The notes beneath the pieces are model-generated. The model saw only the letters and a list, made by a program, of their open reading frames with translations, searched no databases and had not been told where the DNA came from. The position numbers and the translations under genes were made by a program. DNA of 11,494 nucleotides from a virus. Numbering within the stretch: the first letter of the stretch is position 1; every line of letters starts with the position of its first letter. Below are positions 5-11,494 of the stretch, piece after piece. The DNA lies in UHGV virus genome UHGV-1946849, one strand, 5' to 3'.

Positions 5-81
5 CTAGCGAATCACTCTTTAAAGAGCGAGAAAAAAGGCATGGAACAATATTTTATGCCTTTGTATTAACATGAATTTAA
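5..81. repeat. Left attachment-site direct repeat (attL candidate)
   Basis: 77 bp identical base for base to 11418..11494; identity breaks sharply at position 4 versus 11417. Contains a 7-bp stem inverted repeat AAGGCAT/ATGCCTT. Confidence 0.8.
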
Positions 82-213
82 AAGATTTTATTCTTACTGT
101 TTCATTTTCTGTAAATCATATATCCTCAGTATTTGACATTCATCACTCTAGCGGGAACAATACGACACAATAAGACACCTGATGACTCTTTAAGAAACGA
201 AAGGGGGGCAATA

Positions 214-402
214 GTGTTAAGCACTGATCGGTTTATACGTGAAAAAGAATGCGAAAAACTAACCGGCCTTAGCCGTACGTGTCGCTACCGCCTGGAAAAG
301 GCCGGACAATTCCCATCACGTCGTAAACTTGGCGGTCGTTCCGTTGGCTGGTCTTTATCCGAGGTTCTGGCCTGGAAGGATAGCTGCAAGGCAGTTCATT
401 AA
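214..402 (+). CDS. alpA: AlpA-family winged-helix transcriptional regulator / excisionase-like protein (62 aa from GTG 214; the track ORF extends to TTG 133)
   Basis: Translation RFIREKECEKLTGLSRTCRYRLEKAGQFPSRRKLGGRSVGWSLSEVLAW aligns with E. coli CP4-57 AlpA as recalled. GTG at 214 follows the Shine-Dalgarno AAGGGGGG (201..208); the upstream TTG at 133 lies inside a TTGACA hexamer. Confidence 0.8.
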   Translation: MLSTDRFIREKECEKLTGLSRTCRYRLEKAGQFPSRRKLGGRSVGWSLSEVLAWKDSCKAVH

Positions 403-547
403 TCACGCTGGCGGCACGCAGCCGCCACACATCAATCATCTGAACACAGAGCTATAACCATGAAGATTGAATATACGCCAGAACGTGGGCGGGGATTCGT
501 TCGCCCTGGTGAAACTGAAAAACAACAAAATTGGGGTTTTTCAGGTA

Positions 548-582
548 TAAAAAAAGCGGCCCCGAAATGGAGCCGCCTTTCT
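548..582 (-). terminator. Hairpin terminator, mainly for the leftward operon, possibly bidirectional
   Basis: A-run 548..555, stem GCGGC 556..560 and GCCGC 572..576, then CTTTCT; on the minus strand the stem is followed by TTTTTTT. Confidence 0.45.
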
Positions 583-671
583 GAACAGATAACCCGCTGC
601 GCCGTTTGTGTGTGTGATCCCAAACATAAGCACGGGGATGATAGCCGTTATCAGGCTGGTGGGCAATGCAA

Positions 672-845
672 TCAGTCTGGTTCAGTTCGTTGCCATACCT
701 GCAATGAGCGCTTTTCCCTGTACTCTTTAAGGAATTGCTCAAGGGCAAAAGCACATGGCGCGAATCTTTCTGATTCATGCTCTATCTTTCTGCGCCGTCT
801 TTTCCGTGCCGGTGATAATGTTTTGGTCAATTCTTTATCGGTCAT
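672..845 (-). CDS. Hypothetical small basic protein (57 aa), second gene of the leftward operon
   Basis: Minus-strand ORF with AGGA 7 nt upstream of the ATG at 845; protein-like K/R/E-rich sequence MTDKELTKTLSPARKRRRRKIEH...; followed by the 548..582 terminator. The track start at 860 lacks a ribosome-binding site. Confidence 0.35.
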   Translation of the reverse strand: MTDKELTKTLSPARKRRRRKIEHESERFAPCAFALEQFLKEYREKRSLQVWQRTEPD

Positions 846-902
846 TGTGTTGTCCTGCATAGCAATGCGCCGTAATACCTTACACCACGGCGCTGATGGT
901 GA

Positions 903-1082
903 TTACTCTGGTTCTTTGGCCTTGCGCCGCTGGCGATATTCAACTTCTCGTTTTAATGCCGCAGTAACAAATTGCCCCGTACTTTCGCCAGGCATTTTTA
1001 CCGCCTCAACATTGTTCATAACTTCATGCGGAACCCTTGCCGCAACGGTTTGTGATTTTGCGTTTACCGCTTTTGTCGCCAT
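903..1082 (-). CDS. Ribbon-helix-helix (Arc/CopG-like) DNA-binding protein, 59 aa, candidate repressor
   Basis: Hand translation of the minus strand gives MATKAVNAKSQTVAARVPHEVMNNVEAVKMPGESTGQFVTAALKREVEYRQRRKAKEPE. It shows the R-V-P-x-E-V strand, helix, G-x-S-T turn, helix pattern; GAGGGG ribosome-binding site 8 nt upstream. Below the 60-aa cutoff, so absent from the ORF track. Confidence 0.5.
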   Translation of the reverse strand: MATKAVNAKSQTVAARVPHEVMNNVEAVKMPGESTGQFVTAALKREVEYRQRRKAKEPE

Positions 1083-1132
1083 GTGGTGTACCCCTCATAA
1101 AAAACAAATGCAGTATGCAGGAAAAAAAATAA

Positions 1133-1184
1133 GTGTTCAACACTTGACGTGTTTAACACCTGGGTTTAAATTGGTGTTCAACAC
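1133..1184. promoter_or_regulatory. Divergent promoter region with three palindromic operators GTGTT(C/T)AACAC
   Basis: 11-bp palindromes at 1133..1143, 1149..1159 and 1174..1184. Rightward -35 TTGACG at 1144..1149 and -10 TAAATT at 1167..1172 (17-bp spacer); operators overlap the -35 and the predicted start. Confidence 0.55.
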
Positions 1185-1281
1185 CTTGTTGGCGCAAGGT
1201 GCAGAAACGACGAAACCCGGCAGTGCGCTAACACTAACCGGGCTTCTAACCACCAACGATAGCGAAAGTATCGAGGTAGCT

Positions 1282-1482
1282 ATGAGAAATCATACCACAC
1301 ACCCGCAAGGGCGGGACTCGCACAACCTGAATAAATACATCTGGCGTTTTATCGCCCTGAGCACGGCACAACCGCGCGTGATTACCATTGAGGCCACCAG
1401 CGAACAGGAAGCACGCCAGCAATCTCCGGCTGGCTGCGTGATGGTATTTGCTGCCCGTATTCGTCAGGGGGTAGGCTTATGA
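1282..1482 (+). CDS. Hypothetical protein (66 aa), first gene of the rightward operon
   Basis: ATG at 1282 preceded by GAGGT; its stop overlaps the next start (ATGA). It is the 3' part of the 460..1482 track ORF, whose upstream portion looks non-coding. Confidence 0.4.
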   Translation: MRNHTTHPQGRDSHNLNKYIWRFIALSTAQPRVITIEATSEQEARQQSPAGCVMVFAARIRQGVGL

Positions 1483-1709
1483 GCCAGGAAATCACACTAC
1501 AACAGGCAGCAGAACGCGCCCACCAAATCGAAGTTATTTGCGCACTGGCAGAGGATTACCCTGGCATGATGACCGACAGCGAATCAGGGGCAATCATCGG
1601 CTTACTTAAACGCCTTAGCGGTGAGGTCTGCGTATTCCTGAGCGATGAACAGGAAAGAAGAACGCTTATTTCTAACGAAAAAAAATGCGGAGGGGTACAT
1701 GTGCAATAA
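1479..1709 (+). CDS. Hypothetical protein (76 aa)
   Basis: ATG with upstream GGGGGTAGG; start overlaps the upstream stop; same strand as the operon. Confidence 0.5.
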   Translation: MSQEITLQQAAERAHQIEVICALAEDYPGMMTDSESGAIIGLLKRLSGEVCVFLSDEQERRTLISNEKKCGGVHVQ

Positions 1710-1920
1710 AACCACACCGGACGCAGCCGCCGCCGCGCTCACTACGCTGATGCACGCGCTTATTGATATTTCTGTTATTGCTGACAGGGCGCATAAACAC
1801 GCAGCCAGAGAATCAGAATGCATCTTCCATTTAGCATTTGTGCAGCTAAAAGCCGATCAGGCACTGGATAAGGCCGGAAAAATTATCATGGCTGATGTGC
1901 AGGAGGTGCACCATGCATAA
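1699..1920 (+). CDS. Hypothetical protein (73 aa from ATG 1699; the track ORF starts at 1645)
   Basis: ATG 1699 follows GGAGGGG (1689..1695) with a 3-nt spacer; no recognisable motif. Confidence 0.45.
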   Translation: MCNKTTPDAAAAALTTLMHALIDISVIADRAHKHAARESECIFHLAFVQLKADQALDKAGKIIMADVQEVHHA

Positions 1921-2278
1921 TCTGTCAATTTCTGACCTTAACAGCATTCAGTTTGATGAGAAATTTACCGGGCAGTTGCTGGTCAATGTGGAGAACGGGC
2001 GCATAGTGCGTAATTATCACCTGCCGGATGGTGCAATTGCCGGAAGCGTTGAAGCATTGCTGGAACTGGCGGAACGTGCGCGACTGATTAAGCCGTCAAC
2101 GAGCCATCACGATGATGATCTGCATTTTACCGGATGTATGGTGAGTCACTACGAAAACGGCGTCGAGGTATCCTGTGAACGGCTGCGTGATGATTGCTGT
2201 TTCGGCACACTGCCGGAATTTATCGAGTTGCTGACCAGTTGCGGTTATCAGGTCATTCAGGGGGGTAAACATGCGTGA
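1913..2278 (+). CDS. Hypothetical protein (121 aa from ATG 1913; the track ORF starts at 1895)
   Basis: AGGAGG ribosome-binding site 6 nt upstream of ATG 1913; overlaps the preceding stop. Confidence 0.5.
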   Translation: MHNLSISDLNSIQFDEKFTGQLLVNVENGRIVRNYHLPDGAIAGSVEALLELAERARLIKPSTSHHDDDLHFTGCMVSHYENGVEVSCERLRDDCCFGTLPEFIELLTSCGYQVIQGGKHA

Positions 2279-2504
2279 TGATCGTTTTAATTCCCTGAAA
2301 CAGGAATTTTCCGGCGTTCCTGATGATGCGGCTGATGCGCTTTCGTCAATGCCAGAACTTATTAGAGCGGCTTTTTTCTTACTTTCCACGAGAGAATATA
2401 AATCAACGGGGCTTGATGTACTGAATATCGCCGCCGATTATGCGGAATATGTGGCAGAGGCGCGTTATAGAAGAAAATTTCCTGAGGATGTAAGCCATGC
2501 GTGA
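2271..2504 (+). CDS. Hypothetical protein (77 aa)
   Basis: ATG after GGGGGGTAAAC; ATGCGTGA start/stop overlap with the upstream gene. Confidence 0.5.
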   Translation: MRDDRFNSLKQEFSGVPDDAADALSSMPELIRAAFFLLSTREYKSTGLDVLNIAADYAEYVAEARYRRKFPEDVSHA

Positions 2505-2730
2505 TATTTACCACGAAACAATAGACCGCGCATTTCTTGCACTTTCTCACAGTGAAAACATGCTGGAAATATTGCGCATATGGCTTGAAACACTTGGCGA
2601 CAATGAACGCGACAAACAAAAATCAAGAATTGCCACGGCATTAATAACGCTTCTTGAGCCTGTAATAATGGAACTGCAAGAAATAGATCTATTGCACGAC
2701 AGATATAAAGAACAGCACACCGGAGAATAA
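2497..2730 (+). CDS. Hypothetical protein (77 aa)
   Basis: Same ATGCGTGA overlap junction as at 2271; acidic, helical-looking sequence. Confidence 0.5.
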   Translation: MRDIYHETIDRAFLALSHSENMLEILRIWLETLGDNERDKQKSRIATALITLLEPVIMELQEIDLLHDRYKEQHTGE

Positions 2731-2735
2731 AAATA

Positions 2736-3035
2736 ATGAAACTTAAATATTCTGGCTTAACTGCCAGTGGCAACACTCACCCTAAATTTACGCGCGGCGA
2801 TATTTACCGCGACCAGTACGGCGGCACGGTAATGATTAAGGGCGTGGAAGAACGGCGCGTAACCTACCGCCGTGAAGGTTACGAATATGATTGCGTGATG
2901 CCTGTTTATCAGTTCCGGCGTGATTTTTCTCTGGTACAGACCGCGCCGCATAACGTGTCCACCAGCAACGCCAGGGCACGGGCAAACATCCAGAAGCTGA
3001 AAACCATGATTAACGGATTCAGGGGTAAAAAATGA
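2736..3035 (+). CDS. Hypothetical protein (99 aa) immediately upstream of and coupled to the primase gene
   Basis: GGAGA ribosome-binding site; stop overlaps the primase ATG (ATGA). Confidence 0.55.
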   Translation: MKLKYSGLTASGNTHPKFTRGDIYRDQYGGTVMIKGVEERRVTYRREGYEYDCVMPVYQFRRDFSLVQTAPHNVSTSNARARANIQKLKTMINGFRGKK

Positions 3036-4786
3036 AACTGGCACCGAACGTAAAACAGCAGTCACGCGGCATAAAACACAAAGAAACAGAAGTCATTATT
3101 TTTGCGGGTAGTGATGCCTGGTCACACGCAAAACAATGGCAGGGACATGACGCGCGTATGGCCGGAGATAATGAGCCTCCTGTGTGGCTTGGGGAGCAGC
3201 AGTTATCCGAACTGGATAAGCTGCAAATTGTGCCGGAAGGCAGAAAATCCGTGCGCATATTCAGGGCCGGATATCTTGCGCCAGTAATGATAAAGGCGAT
3301 TGGTCAGAAGCTGGCGGCGGCAGGCGTACAGGATGCAAATTTTTACCCTGATGGTATGCACGGTCAGAAGGTGGAGAACTGGCGCGAATATCTGGCCCGT
3401 GAGCGCCAGAATCTTTCTGATGGTCTGGTCATTGAGCTTCCGGTAAAGCAAAAGGCGCAACTTTCGCAGATGGCGGACAGTGAGCGCGCGCAGCTGCTTG
3501 CCGATCGCTTTGATGGCGTTTGCGTACATCCTGAAAGTGAAATCGTTCACGTATGGCGCGGCGGGGTATGGTGTCCGGTCAGCACAATGGAACTTAGCCG
3601 CGAAATGGTGGCGATCTATTCAGAGCACAGGGCCACTTTCAGCAAGCGCGTAATCAATAACGCCGTGGAAGCGTTAAAAGTTATTGCCGAACCAATGGGC
3701 GAGCCGTCCGGCGATTTGTTGCCGTTCGCCAATGGTGCGCTTGACCTGAAAACGGGGGAATTTTCCCCGCACACGCCGGAGAACTGGATCACCACGCACA
3801 ACGGCATTGAGTACACGCCACCAGCACCAGGGGAGAACATCCGCGATAACGCGCCAAACTTTCATAAATGGCTTGAGCACGCAGCCGGAAAAGACCCGCG
3901 CAAGATGATGCGTATATGTGCCGCGCTGTACATGATTATGGCGAACCGGTACGACTGGCAGATGTTTATTGAGGCCACCGGAGACGGCGGGAGCGGTAAA
4001 AGTACATTCACACACATAGCCAGCCTTCTGGCAGGGAAACAGAACACGGTAAGCGCTGAAATGACATCGCTTGATGATGCTGGTGGACGTGCGCAGGTTG
4101 TCGGGAGTCGTCTTATCGTCCTGGCTGACCAGCCGAAATATACAGGCGAAGGAACGGGCATCAAGAAAATCACGGGCGGTGACCCCGTGGAAATTAACCC
4201 GAAATACGAAAAGCGTTTCACGGCGGTAATCAGGGCGGTGGTGCTGGCGACCAACAATAACCCGATGATATTCACCGAACGGGCCGGAGGTGTGGCACGT
4301 CGTCGCGTGATTTTCCGTTTCGACAATATCGTCAGTGAGGCCGAAAAAGACAGGGAGCTACCGGAAAAGATCGCGGCTGAAATCCCTGTCATTATCCGCC
4401 GATTGCTGGCGAACTTTACCGACCCTGAGAAGGCACGGGCTTTACTACTGGAACAGCGTGACGGTGATGAAGCTCTGGCAATAAAGCAACAGACGGATCC
4501 GGTTATTGAGTTTTGCCAGTTCCTGAATTTTCTGGAGGAAGCACGCGGCCTGATGATGGGCGGCGGTGGCGATTCAGTGAAGTACACGACCAGAAACAGC
4601 CTTTACCGCGTCTATCTGGCGTTTATGGCGTACGCAGGCAGGAGCAAACCGCTAAACGTAAATGACTTTGGCAAGGCTATGAAGCCAGCCGCGAAAGTTT
4701 ACGGACATGAATATATTACGCGGAAAGTTAAGGGAGTAACGCAGACTAACGCAATAACAACAGACGAGTGCGACGCGTTTTTATAA
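3032..4786 (+). CDS. Replication protein: P4-family primase C-terminal domain / D5-N plus SF3 helicase (584 aa)
   Basis: Walker A GDGGSGKST, a D5-N-like segment LPFANGALDLKTGEF...NGIEY and an SF3 motif C VVLATNNNP; size and layout match Pri-Rep proteins of P4-like elements and PICIs. Confidence 0.88.
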   Translation: MKLAPNVKQQSRGIKHKETEVIIFAGSDAWSHAKQWQGHDARMAGDNEPPVWLGEQQLSELDKLQIVPEGRKSVRIFRAGYLAPVMIKAIGQKLAAAGVQDANFYPDGMHGQKVENWREYLARERQNLSDGLVIELPVKQKAQLSQMADSERAQLLADRFDGVCVHPESEIVHVWRGGVWCPVSTMELSREMVAIYSEHRATFSKRVINNAVEALKVIAEPMGEPSGDLLPFANGALDLKTGEFSPHTPENWITTHNGIEYTPPAPGENIRDNAPNFHKWLEHAAGKDPRKMMRICAALYMIMANRYDWQMFIEATGDGGSGKSTFTHIASLLAGKQNTVSAEMTSLDDAGGRAQVVGSRLIVLADQPKYTGEGTGIKKITGGDPVEINPKYEKRFTAVIRAVVLATNNNPMIFTERAGGVARRRVIFRFDNIVSEAEKDRELPEKIAAEIPVIIRRLLANFTDPEKARALLLEQRDGDEALAIKQQTDPVIEFCQFLNFLEEARGLMMGGGGDSVKYTTRNSLYRVYLAFMAYAGRSKPLNVNDFGKAMKPAAKVYGHEYITRKVKGVTQTNAITTDECDAFL

Positions 4787-4800
4787 TTTTTTGTAATTGC

Positions 4801-5026
4801 TGTCTACCCTGTCTACCTGAGTAAAGAAAAATACATTTAATTCAGTGCATTAAGTTAGGTAGATAGCCTTTTTTTACTGTCTACCCACTATCTACCCTCT
4901 CTACCTGATTTTACCTGAATCAGACAGGGAGGTAGACACGGGGTAGATAGTGGATAAAAGCACTCTACCCCGCTGAAAGCCGCGCCATTACTGGTATGAG
5001 GGCCACTAAGGTAGATAAGGTAGACA
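4801..5026. repeat. Iteron cluster, candidate replication origin / cis replication region
   Basis: At least 11 copies of (G/T)TCTACC(C) in both orientations (forward at 4802, 4811, 4879, 4890, 4900, 4964; reverse GGTAGA at 4858, 4931, 4942, 5010, 5019), non-coding, directly downstream of the primase gene. Confidence 0.6.
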
Positions 5027-5074
5027 AGGGGAGGCACAACTCAAAACTTTTTAAACGAGGGGGTAAAAATAAAT

Positions 5075-5353
5075 ATGCACACTTCAGGGAAATTTAATAA
5101 ATCACTCAAAAAACGCAGAGACAGAACAGAACCGAAATATCGCGCGTTAGACATGACAGAGCACGCTTTAAAGGTGGCAATCAGAACGATAGACCGCCAC
5201 GCGGGGGAAGGATACGCGAAAGCACATCCCGAACTGATAAGCGCATTCATGACCACGACGGCGGCAAATTTTGCCACGCTGACAGAGCGGGAGATTGCCG
5301 AAGCGGAACAGGTAACAACCATCAACGTTAAAACCGGAGAGGTGGAATCATGA
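5075..5353 (+). CDS. Hypothetical protein (92 aa), coupled to the ssb-like gene
   Basis: GAGGGGG ribosome-binding site upstream; stop overlaps the next ATG (ATGA). Confidence 0.55.
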   Translation: MHTSGKFNKSLKKRRDRTEPKYRALDMTEHALKVAIRTIDRHAGEGYAKAHPELISAFMTTTAANFATLTEREIAEAEQVTTINVKTGEVES

Positions 5354-5772
5354 CAGCACAGATAGCAGCTTACGGGCGGCTGGTGGACGACCCGCAGGTA
5401 AAACAGACCAGCAAGGGCACACCGATGACGCTGGCGCGTATGGCGGTCCCCCTTCCGTGCAGCCAGGCAGATGACGGAACGGCGACGATGTGGTTATCCG
5501 TCCTGGCATTTGGCAGACAGGCCGAAGCACTGGAAAGGCACCGCAAGGGTGAACTCCTGAGCGTGGCGGGTAACATGCAGATCAGCCAGTGGACTGGGCA
5601 GAACGGAGAAACGCGGCAGGGCTGGCAGGTTATCGCAGACAGTGTAATCAGTGCGCGAACGGCGCGACTGGGCGGCAAAAAAGGTCAACAGGGCCAGGCT
5701 ACTGACGCGCTGAACAGGGCAAAACAACAGGCGGGGAATGATGATCCGTACGGGGATAACATACCGTTTTAA
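5350..5772 (+). CDS. ssb: Single-stranded DNA-binding protein homologue (140 aa)
   Basis: OB-fold segment WLSVLAFGRQAEALERHRKGELLSVAGNMQISQWTGQNGETRQGWQVIADSV aligns with E. coli SSB [52 protein letters not shown]; Gly/Gln-rich linker; C-terminal DDPYGDNIPF resembles the SSB acidic tip DDDIPF. Confidence 0.8.
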   Translation: MTAQIAAYGRLVDDPQVKQTSKGTPMTLARMAVPLPCSQADDGTATMWLSVLAFGRQAEALERHRKGELLSVAGNMQISQWTGQNGETRQGWQVIADSVISARTARLGGKKGQQGQATDALNRAKQQAGNDDPYGDNIPF

Positions 5773-5787
5773 GCGACGAGTGACAGA

Positions 5788-5811
5788 AGCCGGAGCAATC
5801 CGGCTTTTTTA
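5788..5811 (+). terminator. Rho-independent terminator after the ssb-like gene
   Basis: Stem GCCGGA (5789..5794), loop GCAA, stem TCCGGC (5799..5804), then TTTTTT. Confidence 0.7.
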
Positions 5812-5860
5812 CGGGTCCTCCTGGCGGGGTGGGCCTGAACACGGGGCGGGAAGCGCGGAA
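5811..5860 (+). other. Degenerate cos-like relic (cosQ-like with a disrupted cosN)
   Basis: ACGGGTCCTCCTGG...ACGGGGCGGGAAGCGCGG parallels the intact copy at 8253..8300 (ACGGGTCCTTTCCGG...ACGGGGCGGCGACCTCGCGG), and the preceding terminator hairpin is duplicated too. Confidence 0.5.
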
Positions 5861-5990
5861 AAAAGCGCATTTTTGTGATTTTATCGTCATCATCATCATG
5901 AGCGTAATTTATTGTTTTTAATTGTTTTGATGCAAAAAAGATGATGGTTGTGGTTAATTTTCGTTCGACATCTTTGCAGGCAGATAAAAA

Positions 5991-6027
5991 AGCCCGATAA
6001 GGTCAGAGGTGGCTTATCGGGCTTTTG
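5991..6027. terminator. Strong hairpin, bidirectional terminator-like
   Basis: Perfect 11-bp inverted repeat AGCCCGATAAG / CTTATCGGGCT with an 11-nt loop, flanked by an A-run upstream and TTTT downstream. Confidence 0.5.
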
Positions 6028-6103
6028 CATATGAGGCTTTTTGGTGCACTGACACACATGAGCGGGATCATCATTTCATAATTTGCAACACAACTCAATA
6101 TCA

Positions 6104-6152
6104 TTGCACAAAACGCAATCCTGATTATAATCAGAGCTGGATGAACATCCAG
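6104..6152 (+). promoter_or_regulatory. Candidate sigma-70 promoter of the capsid operon with a 16-bp palindrome at the predicted start
   Basis: -35 TTGCAC (6104..6109), 16-bp spacer, -10 TATAAT (6126..6131); perfect palindrome CTGGATGAACATCCAG at 6137..6152. Confidence 0.5.
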
Positions 6153-6187
6153 TTATGATTTTTTAAGTCGAAGAGGAATTTCTTACT

Positions 6188-6394
6188 ATGGCTGAAGAGA
6201 AAAAAGGCGGTGTTTCGGTGTACATAAGCCCCGAAATCGTGGAGGTGCTCAAGCAGCGCCACAAAAAAAACTATGAGGCTGGCGTGGCGGCTGGACTGGA
6301 TCCGCTGATGACGCCGGAGCCGTCGATAGGTTCACTTGTACGCTCTTATTTACTTGCGGCGCTTGGGATGCATAAAAATTATGGGGGTGAATAA
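6188..6394 (+). CDS. Hypothetical small protein (68 aa) translationally coupled to the capsid gene
   Basis: AAGAGGA ribosome-binding site; stop TAA overlaps the capsid ATG (TAATG). Confidence 0.6.
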   Translation: MAEEKKGGVSVYISPEIVEVLKQRHKKNYEAGVAAGLDPLMTPEPSIGSLVRSYLLAALGMHKNYGGE

Positions 6395-7449
6395 TGGCAG
6401 GCAAAGCAACGGCACTTAACACTAACCAGCTTTTCATGTACCTGAATCGCGGGGATATTGCGGATTTTAAATTCAGCCCTCTGTTTACTACGCTGTTTTT
6501 CCCGAACGTGGCGACATTCAGCACGCAAAACATCATGCTGGATACCCTGGACATTGAAGAAGTCACCATGTCGGCGTTTTGTTCGCCTATGGTGGGTAGC
6601 CAGGTTCAGCGCGATAAAGGGTACGAAACCAGCACGATTAAACCTGGCTACATGAAGCCAAAGCACGAAATCGATCCAACGAAAACCATCATGCGCATGG
6701 CTGGAGAAGATCCGGCACAGCTTAACGACCCTACCTATCGCCGTATGCGCCTGATTACTGGCAATATGCGCCGCCAGATAAACGCCATAAAAGCGCGCGT
6801 GGAATGGCTGGCGGTAAATGCGGTAACGACCGGAAAAAACATCATTGAGGGCGAAGGCATAGAGCGCTATGAAATCGACTGGAAGATACCGGAAAAAAAC
6901 ATCATAGAGCAGGCCGACGGGAAAAAATGGTCAGCGCAGGACAAAGAAACCCACGATCCAATCTATGATATCGAACTATACGCCGATCAGGCTGGTTGCC
7001 CCGCAAACGTCATGATTATGGGCGCTGAGGTATGGCGAACGTTACGCAGCTTTAAAAAATTCCGTGAGCTGTACGATCTTTCCCGTGGTTCAGAATCCGC
7101 CGCCGAACTGGCCTGTAAAAACCTGGGCGAAGTGGTGAGCTTTAAAGGCTATCTTGGTGATCTGGCCCTTATCGTCTATTCCGGCAAATACACTGACAGC
7201 GATGGTACCGAAAAATATTTCCTTGAGCCTGATTTGCTGGTCCTAGGTAACACCAACAATAAAGGGCTGGTGGCCTATGGTGCGATAATGGATCAGGAAG
7301 CGGTAAGAACGGGCGCAACACAAAACATGTTTTACCCGAAAAACTGGATTGAGGACGGCGATCCGGCGATTGAGTACGTGCAGACACACAGTGCACCGCA
7401 GCCGGTACCGGCAGATATTCGCAAATTTGTTACCGTCAAAATTGGTTAA
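6394..7449 (+). CDS. Major capsid protein, lambda gpE-like (351 aa)
   Basis: Colinear similarity to lambda E as recalled: FSPLF..LFF, KPGYMKPKHEIDP, DPTYRRMR, GSESAAELACKNLGEVVSFKGYLGDLALIVYSGKYTD, LVLGNT, YPKNW, GDPA. Confidence 0.9.
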   Translation: MAGKATALNTNQLFMYLNRGDIADFKFSPLFTTLFFPNVATFSTQNIMLDTLDIEEVTMSAFCSPMVGSQVQRDKGYETSTIKPGYMKPKHEIDPTKTIMRMAGEDPAQLNDPTYRRMRLITGNMRRQINAIKARVEWLAVNAVTTGKNIIEGEGIERYEIDWKIPEKNIIEQADGKKWSAQDKETHDPIYDIELYADQAGCPANVMIMGAEVWRTLRSFKKFRELYDLSRGSESAAELACKNLGEVVSFKGYLGDLALIVYSGKYTDSDGTEKYFLEPDLLVLGNTNNKGLVAYGAIMDQEAVRTGATQNMFYPKNWIEDGDPAIEYVQTHSAPQPVPADIRKFVTVKIG

Positions 7450-7461
7450 CGGGGGGATTCT

Positions 7462-7797
7462 ATGGACACTCCATACATTGAGTTATTTGCAGGCAGTCAG
7501 CGGGTCGCCACGACGCTGGTACATTTTGCCGCTGATGCTGGCGTTATTCAGGAATTTACCCCGCTGATGCTGGCAGACAATGGCGAGTTTAAGCCGTGGG
7601 ATGGTCAGGAATCTGGCAAGGCTGTTTATCTGACCTCGTACCCTGTGGACACGTCAAAGCAGAAATCAGCACAGTGTTACAAGACGGGGATTTTCAATAT
7701 TGCCGCCGTTAACTGGCCTGAGAGCGTCGACACCGATGCGAAAAAATGCGCCGCCTTTGCGGGTTCCGGCGTATCCGTTCAGCCGCTGGCCCGATAA
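7462..7797 (+). CDS. Head decoration protein, lambda gpD-like (111 aa)
   Basis: FTPLMLAD, WDG, YKTGIFN, WPES and KKCAAFAGSG match the lambda D motifs TPLMLDT, WDG, YKSGTFR, WPEA and KKRTAFAGT. Confidence 0.82.
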   Translation: MDTPYIELFAGSQRVATTLVHFAADAGVIQEFTPLMLADNGEFKPWDGQESGKAVYLTSYPVDTSKQKSAQCYKTGIFNIAAVNWPESVDTDAKKCAAFAGSGVSVQPLAR

Positions 7798-7809
7798 GCA
7801 GGGGGAACG

Positions 7810-8223
7810 ATGGCAACGAATGAAAGCGTCATGACGCTACCGCTGGCGAGTAAATTTAAAGCCGAAGCGCGGGCAATGGCTGACAGAGGTTTATCAACCT
7901 ACGAGGCCGTATATCAACTCAACAAACTGGAAGAGCAGGACAAGCCGCGCGCTGATGCGATTATGGCGCTTCATGAACATAACGACTATCAGCCGCTGTT
8001 ACGTGCAATGGCAAACGTGCCATGTATTAGCGTCGATAATGCTCGTGAAATCCTGAACATGACCATAGAGCAGGAGCGCCCAAAGGTTGCGCCGGAGCTT
8101 ACCGCAGCCTTTGAAAACTTTATGGACATGCACAGCCCGAAAGCCGTATCACCCGGCATGGCATACGACGGCAGAAACCAGGGCGATGAAGGCGACGTCG
8201 ATCGCATACTGAAAACCATCTGA
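7810..8223 (+). CDS. Hypothetical protein (137 aa), last gene of the capsid operon
   Basis: GGGGGAA ribosome-binding site; followed by the terminator at 8229..8252. Confidence 0.6.
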   Translation: MATNESVMTLPLASKFKAEARAMADRGLSTYEAVYQLNKLEEQDKPRADAIMALHEHNDYQPLLRAMANVPCISVDNAREILNMTIEQERPKVAPELTAAFENFMDMHSPKAVSPGMAYDGRNQGDEGDVDRILKTI

Positions 8224-8228
8224 CATAA

Positions 8229-8252
8229 GGCCGGAGAAATCCGGCTTTTTTT
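8229..8252 (+). terminator. Rho-independent terminator
   Basis: Stem GCCGGA (8230..8235), loop GAAA, stem TCCGGC (8240..8245), then TTTTTTT; near-identical to the terminator at 5788..5811. Confidence 0.7.
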
Positions 8253-8310
8253 ACGGGTCCTTTCCGGCATATGGACCCGTTACGGGGCGGCGACCTCGCG
8301 GGTTTTCGCT
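8253..8310 (+). other. Lambda-type cos site (cosQ and cosN with the 12-nt cohesive end GGGCGGCGACCT at 8285..8296) with a truncated cosB
   Basis: ACGGGTCCTTTCCGG...GTTACGGGGCGGCGACCTCGCGGGTTTTCGCTATTTATGA matches the lambda cos junction as recalled; it then diverges to CGTTTTTCCGTG, and the Nu1-like gene starts only about 90 bp downstream. Confidence 0.85.
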
Positions 8311-8385
8311 ATTTATGACGTTTTTCCGTGAAGGTGACACCACCACCACTTGATTAATATTTAACCATGCAGTTAAGGTAACATT

Positions 8386-8820
8386 ATGATTGATAAAGCT
8401 TGTTTTGTAAGTCAGCAGGAAATAGCTGAACATTTCAAGGTTAACAGAACCACTATTCGCGCATGGACCAAACAGGGGATGCCGTATCTTAATGCGGATC
8501 GCGGAAAGTCTGGCGGTTATCACATCGGGCATACATTGCTTTGGTCTTCAGGTAAAAGCCGTCTTGAGACCATCAGATATCACGTAGAAACCAGTGCGCT
8601 GGAAAAAATTATGTTTGCCAGGCTGCTTTCATCTGAGCGTGACGAGTACTCCAGTGAAGAAACAGAACATCGATTTGATGAAGGTTTGCAGATTTACGGC
8701 TATTCACCGGAAGATGTGAGCAAGGCACGAAATAAAATGGCTGGCTTTCTGGCTGGGTGGCGTCATGCCATAAGCGTTCGCCGTGCCAGCATGGAGCAAT
8801 CAGCCGATACAGAACAGTAA
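8386..8820 (+). CDS. Small terminase (lambda Nu1)-like protein, candidate Rpp-type packaging-redirection factor (144 aa)
   Basis: N-terminus VSQQEIAEHFKVNRTTIRAWTKQGMPYLNADRGKSGGYHIGHTLLWSSGKS aligns with lambda Nu1 VNKKQLADIFGASIRTIQNWQEQGMPVLRGGGKGNEVLYDSAAVIKWYAER; no large terminase gene follows. Confidence 0.78.
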   Translation: MIDKACFVSQQEIAEHFKVNRTTIRAWTKQGMPYLNADRGKSGGYHIGHTLLWSSGKSRLETIRYHVETSALEKIMFARLLSSERDEYSSEETEHRFDEGLQIYGYSPEDVSKARNKMAGFLAGWRHAISVRRASMEQSADTEQ

Positions 8821-8887
8821 AGCCGATAACTTGTTAATCACTCGCAGCAATGCATGTGATTTGTGCACACTTTCGGTTAACTGGTTC

Positions 8888-9066
8888 GATGTCCGGTTTT
8901 AGTGTCTGTTTTTTGCGCATGTCCGGTTCATGGAAAGCATGTTTTTATATTTTTCATATGGTTAACTTGCAGAGAAACCGGACATGGATCCCGAAAAATT
9001 TTCATAAATAGTGAAAACGCGCGAGGTCGCCGCCCCGTAACGGGCCATAATTCCAGGAAGGACCCG
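8888..9066 (-). other. Second lambda-type cos site in inverted orientation, with a distinct cosB made of three ATGTCCGGTT elements
   Basis: Reverse complement of 9001..9066 reads ACGGGTCCTTCCTGG...GTTACGGGGCGGCGACCTCGCGCGTTTTCACTATTTATGAA (cohesive end at 9024..9035); R-like elements at 8889..8898, 8919..8928 and inverted at 8976..8985, with an AT-rich spacer between. Confidence 0.75.
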
Positions 9067-9099
9067 ACGACACCAGACTATCAGAGCGATGGGGGCACA

Positions 9100-9381
9100 A
9101 TGACAGAAGCCGAACTACTGGGATTAATCCGCCGCGTTACCGGAATCAGCCAGCAGCATGACGAACAGGCCACGCAGCCGGACAGCGTGACCGCCGAAAA
9201 TTACGCGCGTGTGGTTGCTGAGGTGATGCGCCGTGATGGTATCCAGCTTAATGATGTGGATATGCGCAACATACGGATCCGCGTTCTTGAAATGCTGGCC
9301 TACAATCGCCGCGTGGCACTGTATCGGGAAACGGAGAAAATTACGTACCACTGGAAGAAGCCGGAGCGGTTACGGCGTTAA
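9100..9381 (+). CDS. Hypothetical protein (93 aa from ATG 9100; the track ORF starts at 8902 inside the cos sequence)
   Basis: ATG 9100 preceded by GGGGG; upstream in-frame sequence is the inverted cos site. Confidence 0.5.
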   Translation: MTEAELLGLIRRVTGISQQHDEQATQPDSVTAENYARVVAEVMRRDGIQLNDVDMRNIRIRVLEMLAYNRRVALYRETEKITYHWKKPERLRR

Positions 9382-9397
9382 CGAGTAGCGACATACC

Positions 9398-9556
9398 GTG
9401 ACGGAGAGTGACAACCAGTGACACGCCGTGACAAAAGACGGTTTAACCGTTAATTAAAAATTGACGGGATTTTGTGCTTTCCGGACGACGTGACCAACGT
9501 CATTTTTTAGCGAAAAGTTCTGATTAAGGTCATTGTCTGAATGGTCATAATGACCA
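9398..9556. promoter_or_regulatory. Array of GTGAC-family binding-site repeats
   Basis: Four GTGAC copies at exactly 10-bp phasing (9398, 9408, 9418, 9428), an inverted pair GTGACCAACGTCAT (9490..9503), and the palindrome TGGTCATAATGACCA (9542..9556). Confidence 0.5.
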
Positions 9557-9717
9557 CTCCTACAAAACAGGTAAAGCCCACCAGCCTGATTAACAGTTAA
9601 CCGGAAAAAAAATCCGGTAGCCCCGTTATGGGGATCCCCATATCAACATTAACGCCCCTCATGAATTAGCGCGCTTCCCCCTGGAAAGATGACCCGCCTG
9701 TATATTTCTTGTGTCTA

Positions 9718-10012
9718 TTTGTTCCACGTTGTTTCATACAGTGCACCGAACGGTGTAGTCACTGGTGTAGTCATTTTGCGATTTATGGCACTTTTTGTAG
9801 TGCAAATCATTTAATTAAATCAATGCGTTAAGTGAAATTAGTTATATATAACAGCATTTTATCATTTAGTGTTTTTTGCTGTTTCATAATGTTTCAGGCT
9901 GTGCATTATGTTTTTGATTATCAACAGATTTGTGATTTTCCTTGTTCCAGCTTGTTTCACGTTGTAGCCCTTTGTGCAACGATCGGTGTAGTCACTGGTG
10001 TAGTCACTTTTT
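9718..10012. repeat. Duplicated element of about 60 bp upstream of int, each copy ending in tandem GGTGTAGTCA repeats
   Basis: CGGTGTAGTCACTGGTGTAGTCA at 9751..9773 and 9984..10006 with similar upstream context, flanking an AT-rich stretch of about 200 bp. Confidence 0.6.
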
Positions 10013-10031
10013 CGTAAAGAGGGGGTAAAAC

Positions 10032-11261
10032 GTGAGCAGAGCAATGAACAAACTGAGCGATACCTTGCTAAGGAAACTTCATGGTAAGCCAGCGGAGAAA
10101 AACACGTTTTATAGTGATGGCGGAAACCTGAGCGTGAAATATTTAACATCAGGGAAATTGACCTGGTATTTCACATACAGGGCCGGAACGGGAAGGGAGA
10201 CACGACCCGAACGCATTAAGCTGGGAAGTTATCCTGATCTGAGCCTGAAAGCAGCCAGGGAAAAAGCCGCACAGTGTCGCACATGGCTGGCTGAGGGGAA
10301 AAATCCACGTCATGAGATGAATTACACCGTACAGGAAGCGTTAAAGCCCGTAACGGTTGGCGATGCGCTCACCTACTGGCTTGAGTATTACGTAAAGGAA
10401 AACCGCGTGGATTATATCGCCCTGAAAAGGCGACTTAATAATCACGTAATACAGCAGATTGGTGCTATGCCGCTGGATAAATGCGAGCTACGGCACTGGC
10501 TGGCCTGTTTTGACCAGGTGGTAAAGCGAACGCCTGTTACTGCCGGATTCGTGCTACAGGCGTGCAAACAGGCGCTTAAGTTCTGCCGTAGGCGGCGCTA
10601 TGCAATCAGCAACGTTCTGGACGATCTGAACGTTGCGGACGTTGGGAAAAAACCGGATATAAGCGAACGTGTCTTAAGTAACAAAGAACTTGGCGAATTA
10701 TTGCAGGCACTGGACAAAAAAATATTCTCCCCTTACTACGTCGCGTTAATCCGCCTCCTGATTGTCTTCGGAGCCAGAACGGTAGAACTGAGGTTATCGG
10801 AGATCGGGGAGTGGGATTTTACGGAAATGCTATGGACCGTTCCGAAGGAGCACAGCAAAACGAAGGTCGCAATATTCCGGCCCATACCGGAAGCGATCCT
10901 GCCGTTCGTCACGCAGCTGGTGGAGCAGAACAGGCACACGGGCTTATTGCTGGGGGAAGTGAAACAGGAGGCCAGCGTATCGCAGTATGGAAGATTAGCG
11001 CACAGGAGGCTTAATCACCCTCACTGGTCACTGCATGACATCCGGCGCACCTTTACAACCATGCTGAACGATTTAGGCGTTGATCCGCATGTCGTGGAGC
11101 AGCTTACAGGCCACCAGATGCCAGGAATGCAGCGAGTTTATAATCATTCCCGTTATCTGGATGCGAAACGCAATGCGCTGGATATGTGGACGGAGCGGTT
11201 AGGGATACTGGCGGGAACACATGAAAACGTAACCACGCTACCCGTAGCCAGAAGAAAATAA
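10032..11261 (+). CDS. int: Tyrosine recombinase, P4-type integrase with N-terminal arm-binding domain (409 aa)
   Basis: N-terminal arm-binding-domain pattern (DGGNLSVKYLTSGKLTWYFTYR...IKLGSYPDLSLKAAREKA); catalytic region with R..HDIRRT..LTGH..Y residues; GTG start after GAGGGGG. Confidence 0.93.
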   Translation: MSRAMNKLSDTLLRKLHGKPAEKNTFYSDGGNLSVKYLTSGKLTWYFTYRAGTGRETRPERIKLGSYPDLSLKAAREKAAQCRTWLAEGKNPRHEMNYTVQEALKPVTVGDALTYWLEYYVKENRVDYIALKRRLNNHVIQQIGAMPLDKCELRHWLACFDQVVKRTPVTAGFVLQACKQALKFCRRRRYAISNVLDDLNVADVGKKPDISERVLSNKELGELLQALDKKIFSPYYVALIRLLIVFGARTVELRLSEIGEWDFTEMLWTVPKEHSKTKVAIFRPIPEAILPFVTQLVEQNRHTGLLLGEVKQEASVSQYGRLAHRRLNHPHWSLHDIRRTFTTMLNDLGVDPHVVEQLTGHQMPGMQRVYNHSRYLDAKRNALDMWTERLGILAGTHENVTTLPVARRK

Positions 11262-11278
11262 TTTTTTTCGTGTTTTTT

Positions 11279-11355
11279 CAGTATGCGCATACTGGATATG
11301 CGAACAGATACAACGTGCAACAATGAGCAACAATGTGGAACAACTACGAACAAGA
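11279..11355. promoter_or_regulatory. Candidate integrase arm-type / accessory sites next to the right repeat
   Basis: Perfect 16-bp palindrome CAGTATGCGCATACTG (11279..11294) and (C/G)AACAA repeats at about 10-bp phasing (11302..11355, including GCAACAATG twice). Confidence 0.4.
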
Positions 11356-11417
11356 GGCGAAAAAGCGTACGGATTTATAAGTAGCTGATTTTTAATGTGT
11401 TACTGGTTTTTTGTACA

Positions 11418-11494
11418 CTAGCGAATCACTCTTTAAAGAGCGAGAAAAAAGGCATGGAACAATATTTTATGCCTTTGTATTAACATGAATTTAA
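11418..11494. repeat. Right attachment-site direct repeat (attR candidate)
   Basis: Identical to 5..81; the window ends at the repeat end, so the identity could extend further. Confidence 0.8.

Follow-up and report, generated by a model that had tools for sequence, protein, structure and literature searches.

In the satellite SaPI1, CpmB (gp6) is a small internal scaffold that sets small-capsid size, and the late operon of the SaPIs is reportedly under LexA control (Ubeda 2007, cited in PMC6092414). SaPI1 uses the capsid protein of its helper, whereas the satellite that we analyze here has lambda E-like and D-like genes of its own. Its closest described relative is the Gram-negative PICI EcCICFT073, in which c1499 encodes the capsid protein and c1500 the decoration protein and their deletion was without effect on interference or transfer (PMC6092414). 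The EcCICFT073 DNA that is packaged with lambda is phage-sized (PMC6092414), two cos sites have been described in the element, and only c1503 (RppA) interferes when expressed alone (PMC6739421). Derivatives in which cas9 or melA replaced c1498-c1501 were still transduced by phi80 (PMC10530653, PMC10460865), and across the GN-PICIs capsid genes occur in 21 of 29 reference elements, and transfer does not depend on them (PMC10111431). No more recent study of the capsid module in these PICIs came up in a literature search. The subject of this report is an uncharacterized small gene in this known type of satellite, and no function has been described for either of its alleles.

The window, by which we mean the whole stretch of 11,494 nucleotides that was analyzed, is, judged by its sequence, a circularly permuted Gram-negative PICI of the EcCICFT073 type, an 11.4-kb element of a kind common in E. 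coli. All of the features that mark this type are present within about 11 kb: a tyrosine integrase gene (10032-11261), an AlpA-type ORF (133-402), a D5-type primase gene (D5_N, 3032-4786), cos sites, and rppA (redirecting phage packaging). An SSB gene lies at 5350-5772. The lambda-E-like major capsid gene (6394..7449, plus strand, 351 aa; PF03864, E = 4.8e-52; phrog_29) is followed by a lambda-D-like head decoration gene (7462..7797, plus strand; PF02924, E = 2.9e-17; phrog_49), by a 137-aa ORF that is the equivalent of c1501 (7810..8223, plus strand), and by rppA (8386..8820, plus strand, 144 aa), whose product is 99% identical to that of EcCICFT073 c1503 and to which the c1503 primers map. 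The lambda cosN 12-mer GGGCGGCGACCT is found as an exact match at 8285..8296 (plus strand) and in a second copy at 9024-9035 (minus strand); these two copies flank rppA in opposite orientation and match cos1 and cos2 of EcCICFT073. The gene order of the window is that of EcCICFT073 in strain CFT073, and the capsid protein is 98% identical to the c1499 product. The capsid, decoration, scaffold-like, and rppA genes, with the small gene leading, make up the late operon of the element. The satellite encodes shell, decoration, and scaffold proteins; it has no portal, protease, or large terminase.

An island in tqsA of E. coli O18:H1 CFSAN067215 is 99.9% identical to the window. Positions 5-9856 correspond to the right part of that integrated island and positions 9848-11494 to its left part, and the attR and attL sides meet at a 9-bp core, ATAACAGCA (9848-9856). 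Since the two parts are circularly permuted and joined at this core, the sequence comes from an excised circle or a concatemer and not from the integrated form. The last 60 bases of the window are those of positions 22-81, and alignments put the overlap of the two ends (1-81 and 11414-11494) at about 81 bases, so that the unit is 11,413 bp. Four such units come to 45.7 kb, about one lambdoid headful.

The small gene (6188..6394, plus strand) starts with ATG, encodes a 68-aa protein of phrog_3255, and heads the late/capsid operon. Its Shine-Dalgarno sequence, read from the sequence as AAGAGGAA (6171..6178, plus strand), stands 9 nt from the ATG, is rated good to strong, and is kept in four relatives (L003, L004, L088, and L091). 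The stop codon (TAA, 6392-6394) and the capsid start codon (ATG, 6394-6396) have one base in common, giving the TAATG from which the initial annotation had proposed translational coupling and co-expression with the capsid gene. This arrangement is very strongly conserved: TAA and ATG overlap in 83 of 83 related E. coli loci, the overlap is TAATG in a Salmonella relative, and it reads TGATG and TAATG in two helper-embedded relatives. The two genes are also inherited together. In a survey of 5,426 complete E. coli genomes, 632 places in 597 of them carried the small ORF and 633 places in 598 carried the satellite capsid gene, and the single capsid copy without a blastn match to the small ORF has a third, more divergent allele of it that likewise overlaps the capsid start. 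Co-occurrence of the two genes is one to one and far beyond chance.

Within each allele of the small gene the changes are mostly synonymous, with ratios of synonymous to non-synonymous polymorphisms of 13:3 in one and 33:13 in the other (pN/pS ~0.07-0.12), and the small ORF is therefore a real coding gene under purifying selection. This result bears directly on the least probable of the explanations that we weighed, namely, that the peptide is unimportant and the ORF serves only as a leader whose translation brings ribosomes to the start of the capsid gene. A leader would be consistent with the TAATG overlap and with the capsid Shine-Dalgarno sequence, GGGGGTG, buried in the 3' end of the ORF, but strong purifying selection on the amino acids makes it highly improbable, as do homologues recognizable down to 43% identity and 25 columns that are invariant across the E. 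coli and Salmonella members, the invariant residues being grouped in G-G-V-x-V-Y-I-S-P, G-L-D-P-L, and P-S-x-G-x-x-V-R.

The whole 68-aa protein matches phrog_3255 (E = 8.5e-46; residues 1-68 on profile positions 12-79 of 79), and a distant member, P0035, still does so with E = 4.7e-10. On the evidence of these searches, phrog_3255 is a tiny, satellite-only, and strain-variable family of uncharacterized proteins. It comprises 25 clusters in a collection of 5.8 billion proteins, with the source names listed all being E. coli or Salmonella, and 16 matches among 1.84 billion cluster representatives. A tblastn search of 50,697 phage genomes with the 68-aa protein gave no match, and two scans of species-representative genomes gave no relative of the small gene. 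The initial annotation had seen no sequence evidence for a specific family, and our searches agree: neither the protein nor its relatives matched any family significantly in Pfam, NCBIfam, or PADLOC, and sequence searches of the PDB with two family profiles returned chance-level matches only. Two large repetitive proteins among the profile matches, P0029 and P0033, were rejected as uninformative low-complexity or short-motif matches. Another protein, P0023, consists of a PerC-family N-terminus fused to the last 25 residues of one of the two alleles (allele A, below), evidently through a deletion between perC and the small gene (L003 29960-30208); perC precedes the small gene in CFT073 and is absent from the window.

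All of the E. coli loci have the small gene followed by E and then D, usually with the 137-aa gene and in some cases with rppA. A Salmonella element (L004) has another replication module, with an AAA_25 helicase, yet it retains the small gene, E, and D. The same three genes form the conserved unit, without the 137-aa gene, in two kinds of helper-embedded PICI (L088 6001-8428; L091 6001-11838); in one of these the FI and tail genes of the helper follow directly, and the other adjoins a portal fragment, protease, D, and E of the helper. The most distant relative, P0035 (43% identity), belongs to a different satellite architecture (L087 710-4296). There, the small gene opens the late cluster after a replication gene, and it is followed by two small ORFs, a phrog_617 capsid gene of another family, which is three genes away and ~500 nt downstream, and a tailspike gene. 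Finally, one satellite (L117) has a 54%-identical E-like capsid, D, and Rpp and no small gene.

By analogy with CpmB, the initial annotation had suggested that the small protein directs assembly of the satellite capsid protein or sets capsid size. The broader form of this idea, a capsid-assembly partner that acts as a mini-scaffold or chaperone, binds the satellite E-like protein, and perhaps makes a smaller shell on the helper portal and protease, we regard as possible, if on balance unlikely. One-to-one inheritance with the satellite capsid gene (632 against 633 places) and a stop/start overlap kept in all loci are what such a partner would lead one to expect, and even in L087 the small gene lies ~500 nt upstream of a capsid gene. 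In L004 and L088-L093, which are without the Nu3-like gene, the small protein would be the sole satellite candidate for a scaffold. Its helix-loop-helix size class also resembles that of CpmB, which is likewise small (~70 aa), largely helical, satellite encoded, and part of a late operon. The two differ in that no sequence or profile similarity and no PDB match connects them, and a CpmB-style resemblance to the C-terminus of the helper scaffold was looked for in the 68-aa protein and not seen. Comparisons with the C-terminal end of lambdoid gpC/Nu3, with the capsid, decoration, and Rpp proteins, and with the element's own Nu3-like protein all gave no similarity.

The element, moreover, already has a Nu3 homologue. 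Lambda and this satellite share an E/D-type head module, and what corresponds to the lambda Nu3/gpC scaffold is the 137-aa ORF, not the 68-aa protein. The 137-aa ORF matches phrog_53 (head-maturation protease) at positions 495-567 of 583, and BLASTP aligns it with the last 90 residues of the S49 protease/scaffold protein of a CFT073 lambdoid prophage (E = 7e-10); because the alignment falls on the C-terminal end of gpC, the ORF is a Nu3 homologue. Placed two genes past the capsid gene that neighbors the small gene, it is a better scaffold candidate than the 68-aa protein. An assembly partner is also at odds with L117, which lacks the small gene despite encoding E, D, and Rpp, with the continued transduction of EcCICFT073 carrying cargo in place of c1498-c1501 (PMC10530653, PMC10460865), and with the phage-sized packaged DNA (PMC6092414). 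Small capsids have not been seen for EcCICFT073, in constructs that had capsid-module lesions (PMC6092414). The CpmB-like role as scaffold or size factor is thus not supported, in view of the dissimilarity to scaffold, capsid, and decoration proteins, the Nu3 homologue elsewhere in the operon, the satellite without the small gene, alleles that do not co-vary with the capsid N-terminus, and fold signals that point weakly to another class; a CpmB-like size factor is possible, and we have found no positive evidence for it.

By gene order, the small gene is probably the counterpart of c1498, the ORF that precedes c1499 in EcCICFT073. That ORF (WP_000796960.1, phrog_3255) has the same position, the same length of 68 aa, the same TAATG overlap, and the same promoter and palindromes. 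The neighboring genes of the two elements are 98-99% identical, but the small protein is just 68% identical, because the window carries allele A of an internal cassette (6235..6380, plus strand; codons ~16-65) of which CFT073 carries allele B. At the nucleotide level, the window and the EcCICFT073 module are ~97% identical except at 6226-6435 and 7996-8085, and identity between the alleles drops to ~70% in the cassette compared with ~97% in its flanks. Codons 15-68 differ between alleles with a dS of 0.72 and a dN of 0.27 (dN/dS ~0.38), against a dS of 0.04 for the capsid gene. The N-terminal strand region is identical in both alleles, and the helices have diverged. In complete E. coli genomes the alleles are nearly balanced (319 versus 278, or ~53:47); a third allele is present in L086, and there are others in L114 and L116.

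Among 70 loci, association with allele class is ~1.0 only within 6235-6380 and is at background on either side. The cassette showed no linkage to any site within -300 to +2100 nt. It is old and freely recombining, and its divergence is ancient. Co-variation of the alleles with the capsid N-terminus or with a patch in the Nu3-like gene, which would have suggested a physical partnership, was looked for in the same 70 loci and was not seen, which counts against an assembly partner. That patch, at 7996-8085, is itself a second divergent stretch (~70% identity versus ~97% around it) and is unlinked to the small-gene allele. With no co-variation in the late module, any partner of the cassette is not encoded there.

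Such a pattern would be expected if the small gene determined specificity for a partner encoded elsewhere than in the module, and it argues for a helper-directed adaptor or interference factor. The conserved N-terminus would bind DNA or a partner from the satellite, and the di-allelic helices would recognize one of two variants of a helper protein, for example, the portal, protease, scaffold, or late regulator. Two anciently diverged alleles (dS 0.72) at ~53:47, confined to codons 16-65 and unlinked from -300 to +2100 nt, and a family found only in satellites are consistent with this proposal. We nonetheless judge it improbable: the dimorphism could simply be an old recombination import, and only c1503 among the cloned genes interfered with lambda, in a clone set that did not include c1498. 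Of comparably low probability is a combined reading in which the protein is a satellite-specific specificity factor of the capsid module. Its N-terminus and GLDPL loop would dock on the E-like shell, and each of its two helical alleles would fit one of two classes of head machinery in the helpers, so that the satellite would build its own, possibly smaller (T=3/T=4), E/D shell on a portal and protease taken from the helper. Published work would not have detected this activity, since the marked EcCICFT073 derivatives had c1499 or c1501 disrupted and c1498 was not expressed alone.

The region upstream of the small gene is rich in palindromes. A hairpin follows ssb at 5981-6033, upstream of the putative operon promoter. 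This promoter, TTGCAC-16-TATAAT, has a -35 hexamer, TTGCAC, that is overlapped by the inverted repeat TTGCACAAAACGCAA (6104..6118, plus strand, read from the sequence) and, 16 nt on, a -10 hexamer, TATAAT (6126..6131, plus strand), that lies inside the palindrome GATTATAATC, whose CFT073 counterpart is ATGATTATAATCAT. The promoter scan, under whose rules the first hexamer has 4 of 6 matches, did not list it. At about +1 there is a LexA-box-like palindrome, AGCTGGATGAACATCCAGTT (also CTGGATGAACATCCAG), of the form CTG-N10-CAG (6135..6154, without assigned strand). It is the sole match to CTGKAT-N4-ATMCAG in the window, where 0 are expected by chance, and, on a hand-built LexA matrix of SOS boxes, it has the top score in the window (19.6 bits), which exceeds 100 of 100 shuffles and is in the range of real SOS boxes. 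CFT073, the Salmonella relative L004, and the helper-embedded relative L088 all retain the palindrome; L087 and L091 do not have it. Alternatively, with the run of T that follows it, it would form a hairpin, and the scan flagged it as terminator-like. We did not find a LexA-like box at this position mentioned in the EcCICFT073 papers. A LexA-like box at the late promoter would have a counterpart in SaPI operon I, which LexA controls. Further matches to the LexA matrix occur between int and alpA at 11401-11420 and 11290-11309 (18.2 and 14.8 bits); according to published work, induction of alpA is helper dependent, not SOS dependent.

The inverted repeat over the -35 hexamer, which has the form TTGC-N6-YGCAA, is found 84 nt upstream of the small-gene ATG in almost all relatives (L003, L004, and L086-L093) and at -79 in L087; it is duplicated in L091-L093, the second copy in L091 being at -116. 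We considered it as an operator of the small protein itself. TTGCA repeats, however, also precede the capsid gene in L117, the satellite without the small gene, and the repeat is therefore probably not the small protein's private operator.

From sequence and predicted fold, we tentatively favor a reading of the 68-aa protein as a ribbon-helix-helix (RHH)-like DNA-binding regulator of its own operon. AlphaFold2, given an alignment of 12 sequences, predicts an extended N-terminus, a helix at residues 15-34, a loop, and a helix at residues 47-58 (pLDDT 74). When the members were searched singly against Pfam at E values up to 10, three faint matches were returned, of which two are to RHH families and one is unrelated. 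The two, RHH_1 (E = 0.2; residues 9-26 on HMM positions 2-19) and BrnA (E = 0.017), are both sub-threshold, and both align the strand and the start of helix A in register. An hhalign comparison with 13 hand-entered RHH cores aligned residues 7-24 (18 columns) with a score of 16, which 1 of 200 column shuffles reached and which compares with 7.9 for a reversed control. Foldseek searches of the predicted fold against the PDB and BFVD gave nothing significant. The RHH signals agree with one another, although each is weak and none is significant alone.

Several further observations are compatible with an RHH-like regulator. No other gene stands between TTGCAC-16-TATAAT and the small gene, and conserved palindromes lie at -35, -10, and +1. 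Divergence between the two alleles affects the helices and leaves the strand unchanged. In L087 the small gene still opens the late cluster even though the capsid is of another family, and its absence from 50,697 phage genomes implies that it is no general requirement of E-type capsids. CopG, Arc/Mnt, BrnA, and the N-terminal domain of TraM are alike in size to the 68-aa protein, and RHH repressors share with it an N-terminus of the form V-x-V-x-I-S-P-D/E-I-V-x-x-L followed by two helices. Where such repressors are first genes, they also share its place at the head of an operon behind a palindrome-rich promoter and its overlap with the next gene.

Other observations count against the RHH-like regulator. 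All of the fold signals fall below significance, Foldseek was empty, and the RHH reference set was a hand-entered one. RHH proteins do not typically have a 12-residue loop such as the conserved GLDPL...PS insertion or a first helix of 20 residues, and the next gene encodes a capsid protein, unlike the toxin or replication gene that follows an RHH repressor. The position immediately ahead of the capsid gene is occupied in most tailed phages by a scaffold gene. The TTGCA-type repeats are also present in L117, which is without the small gene, and a strong Shine-Dalgarno sequence, coupling to the most abundant structural gene, and one-to-one co-inheritance would fit a stoichiometric structural partner equally well. 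We rate the RHH-like regulator as slightly likelier than the assembly partner because of the weak fold signals and the first-gene position; the helper-directed adaptor ranks third.

As a regulator, the 68-aa protein would be a small dimeric RHH-like DNA binder with a strand at residues 8-14, then helix A, the conserved GLDPL...PS loop, and helix B. Coproduced with the capsid proteins, it would act back on the palindrome-rich, probably LexA-controlled promoter upstream, and this feedback would tune or time the late operon, as the first genes of CopG, Arc, and antitoxin type do. The TAATG overlap would then represent ordinary operon coupling and would not be proof of a physical partnership with the capsid.

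Published constructs test neither a regulatory nor a capsid role of the small gene. The marked EcCICFT073 derivatives used in transfer and packaging tests were all c1501::tetA or c1499::cat (PMC6092414 Table 1; PMC6739421 Tables S4/S5), and c1501, the gene interrupted by tetA in the standard marked element (PMC6092414), is the Nu3-like gene. The pBAD clones begin at c1499, and the forward primer used for them lies within the small ORF (PMC6739421 Tables S4/S5), so the small gene was not expressed alone in published work. For an assembly partner, this means that the published negatives came from elements with c1501::tetA or c1499::cat.

About 1 in 9 complete E. coli genomes carries the satellite capsid module, whose capsid gene has been described as being without phenotype. 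That capsid gene has a single invariant companion, the small gene, which heads the operon and which alone in the module occurs in two deeply diverged allelic forms. If the small gene encodes a regulator, it would explain how the late genes are timed relative to the SOS response and to the helper. If it encodes an assembly or specificity factor, it would reveal a novel means by which satellites exploit the shell proteins that they encode.
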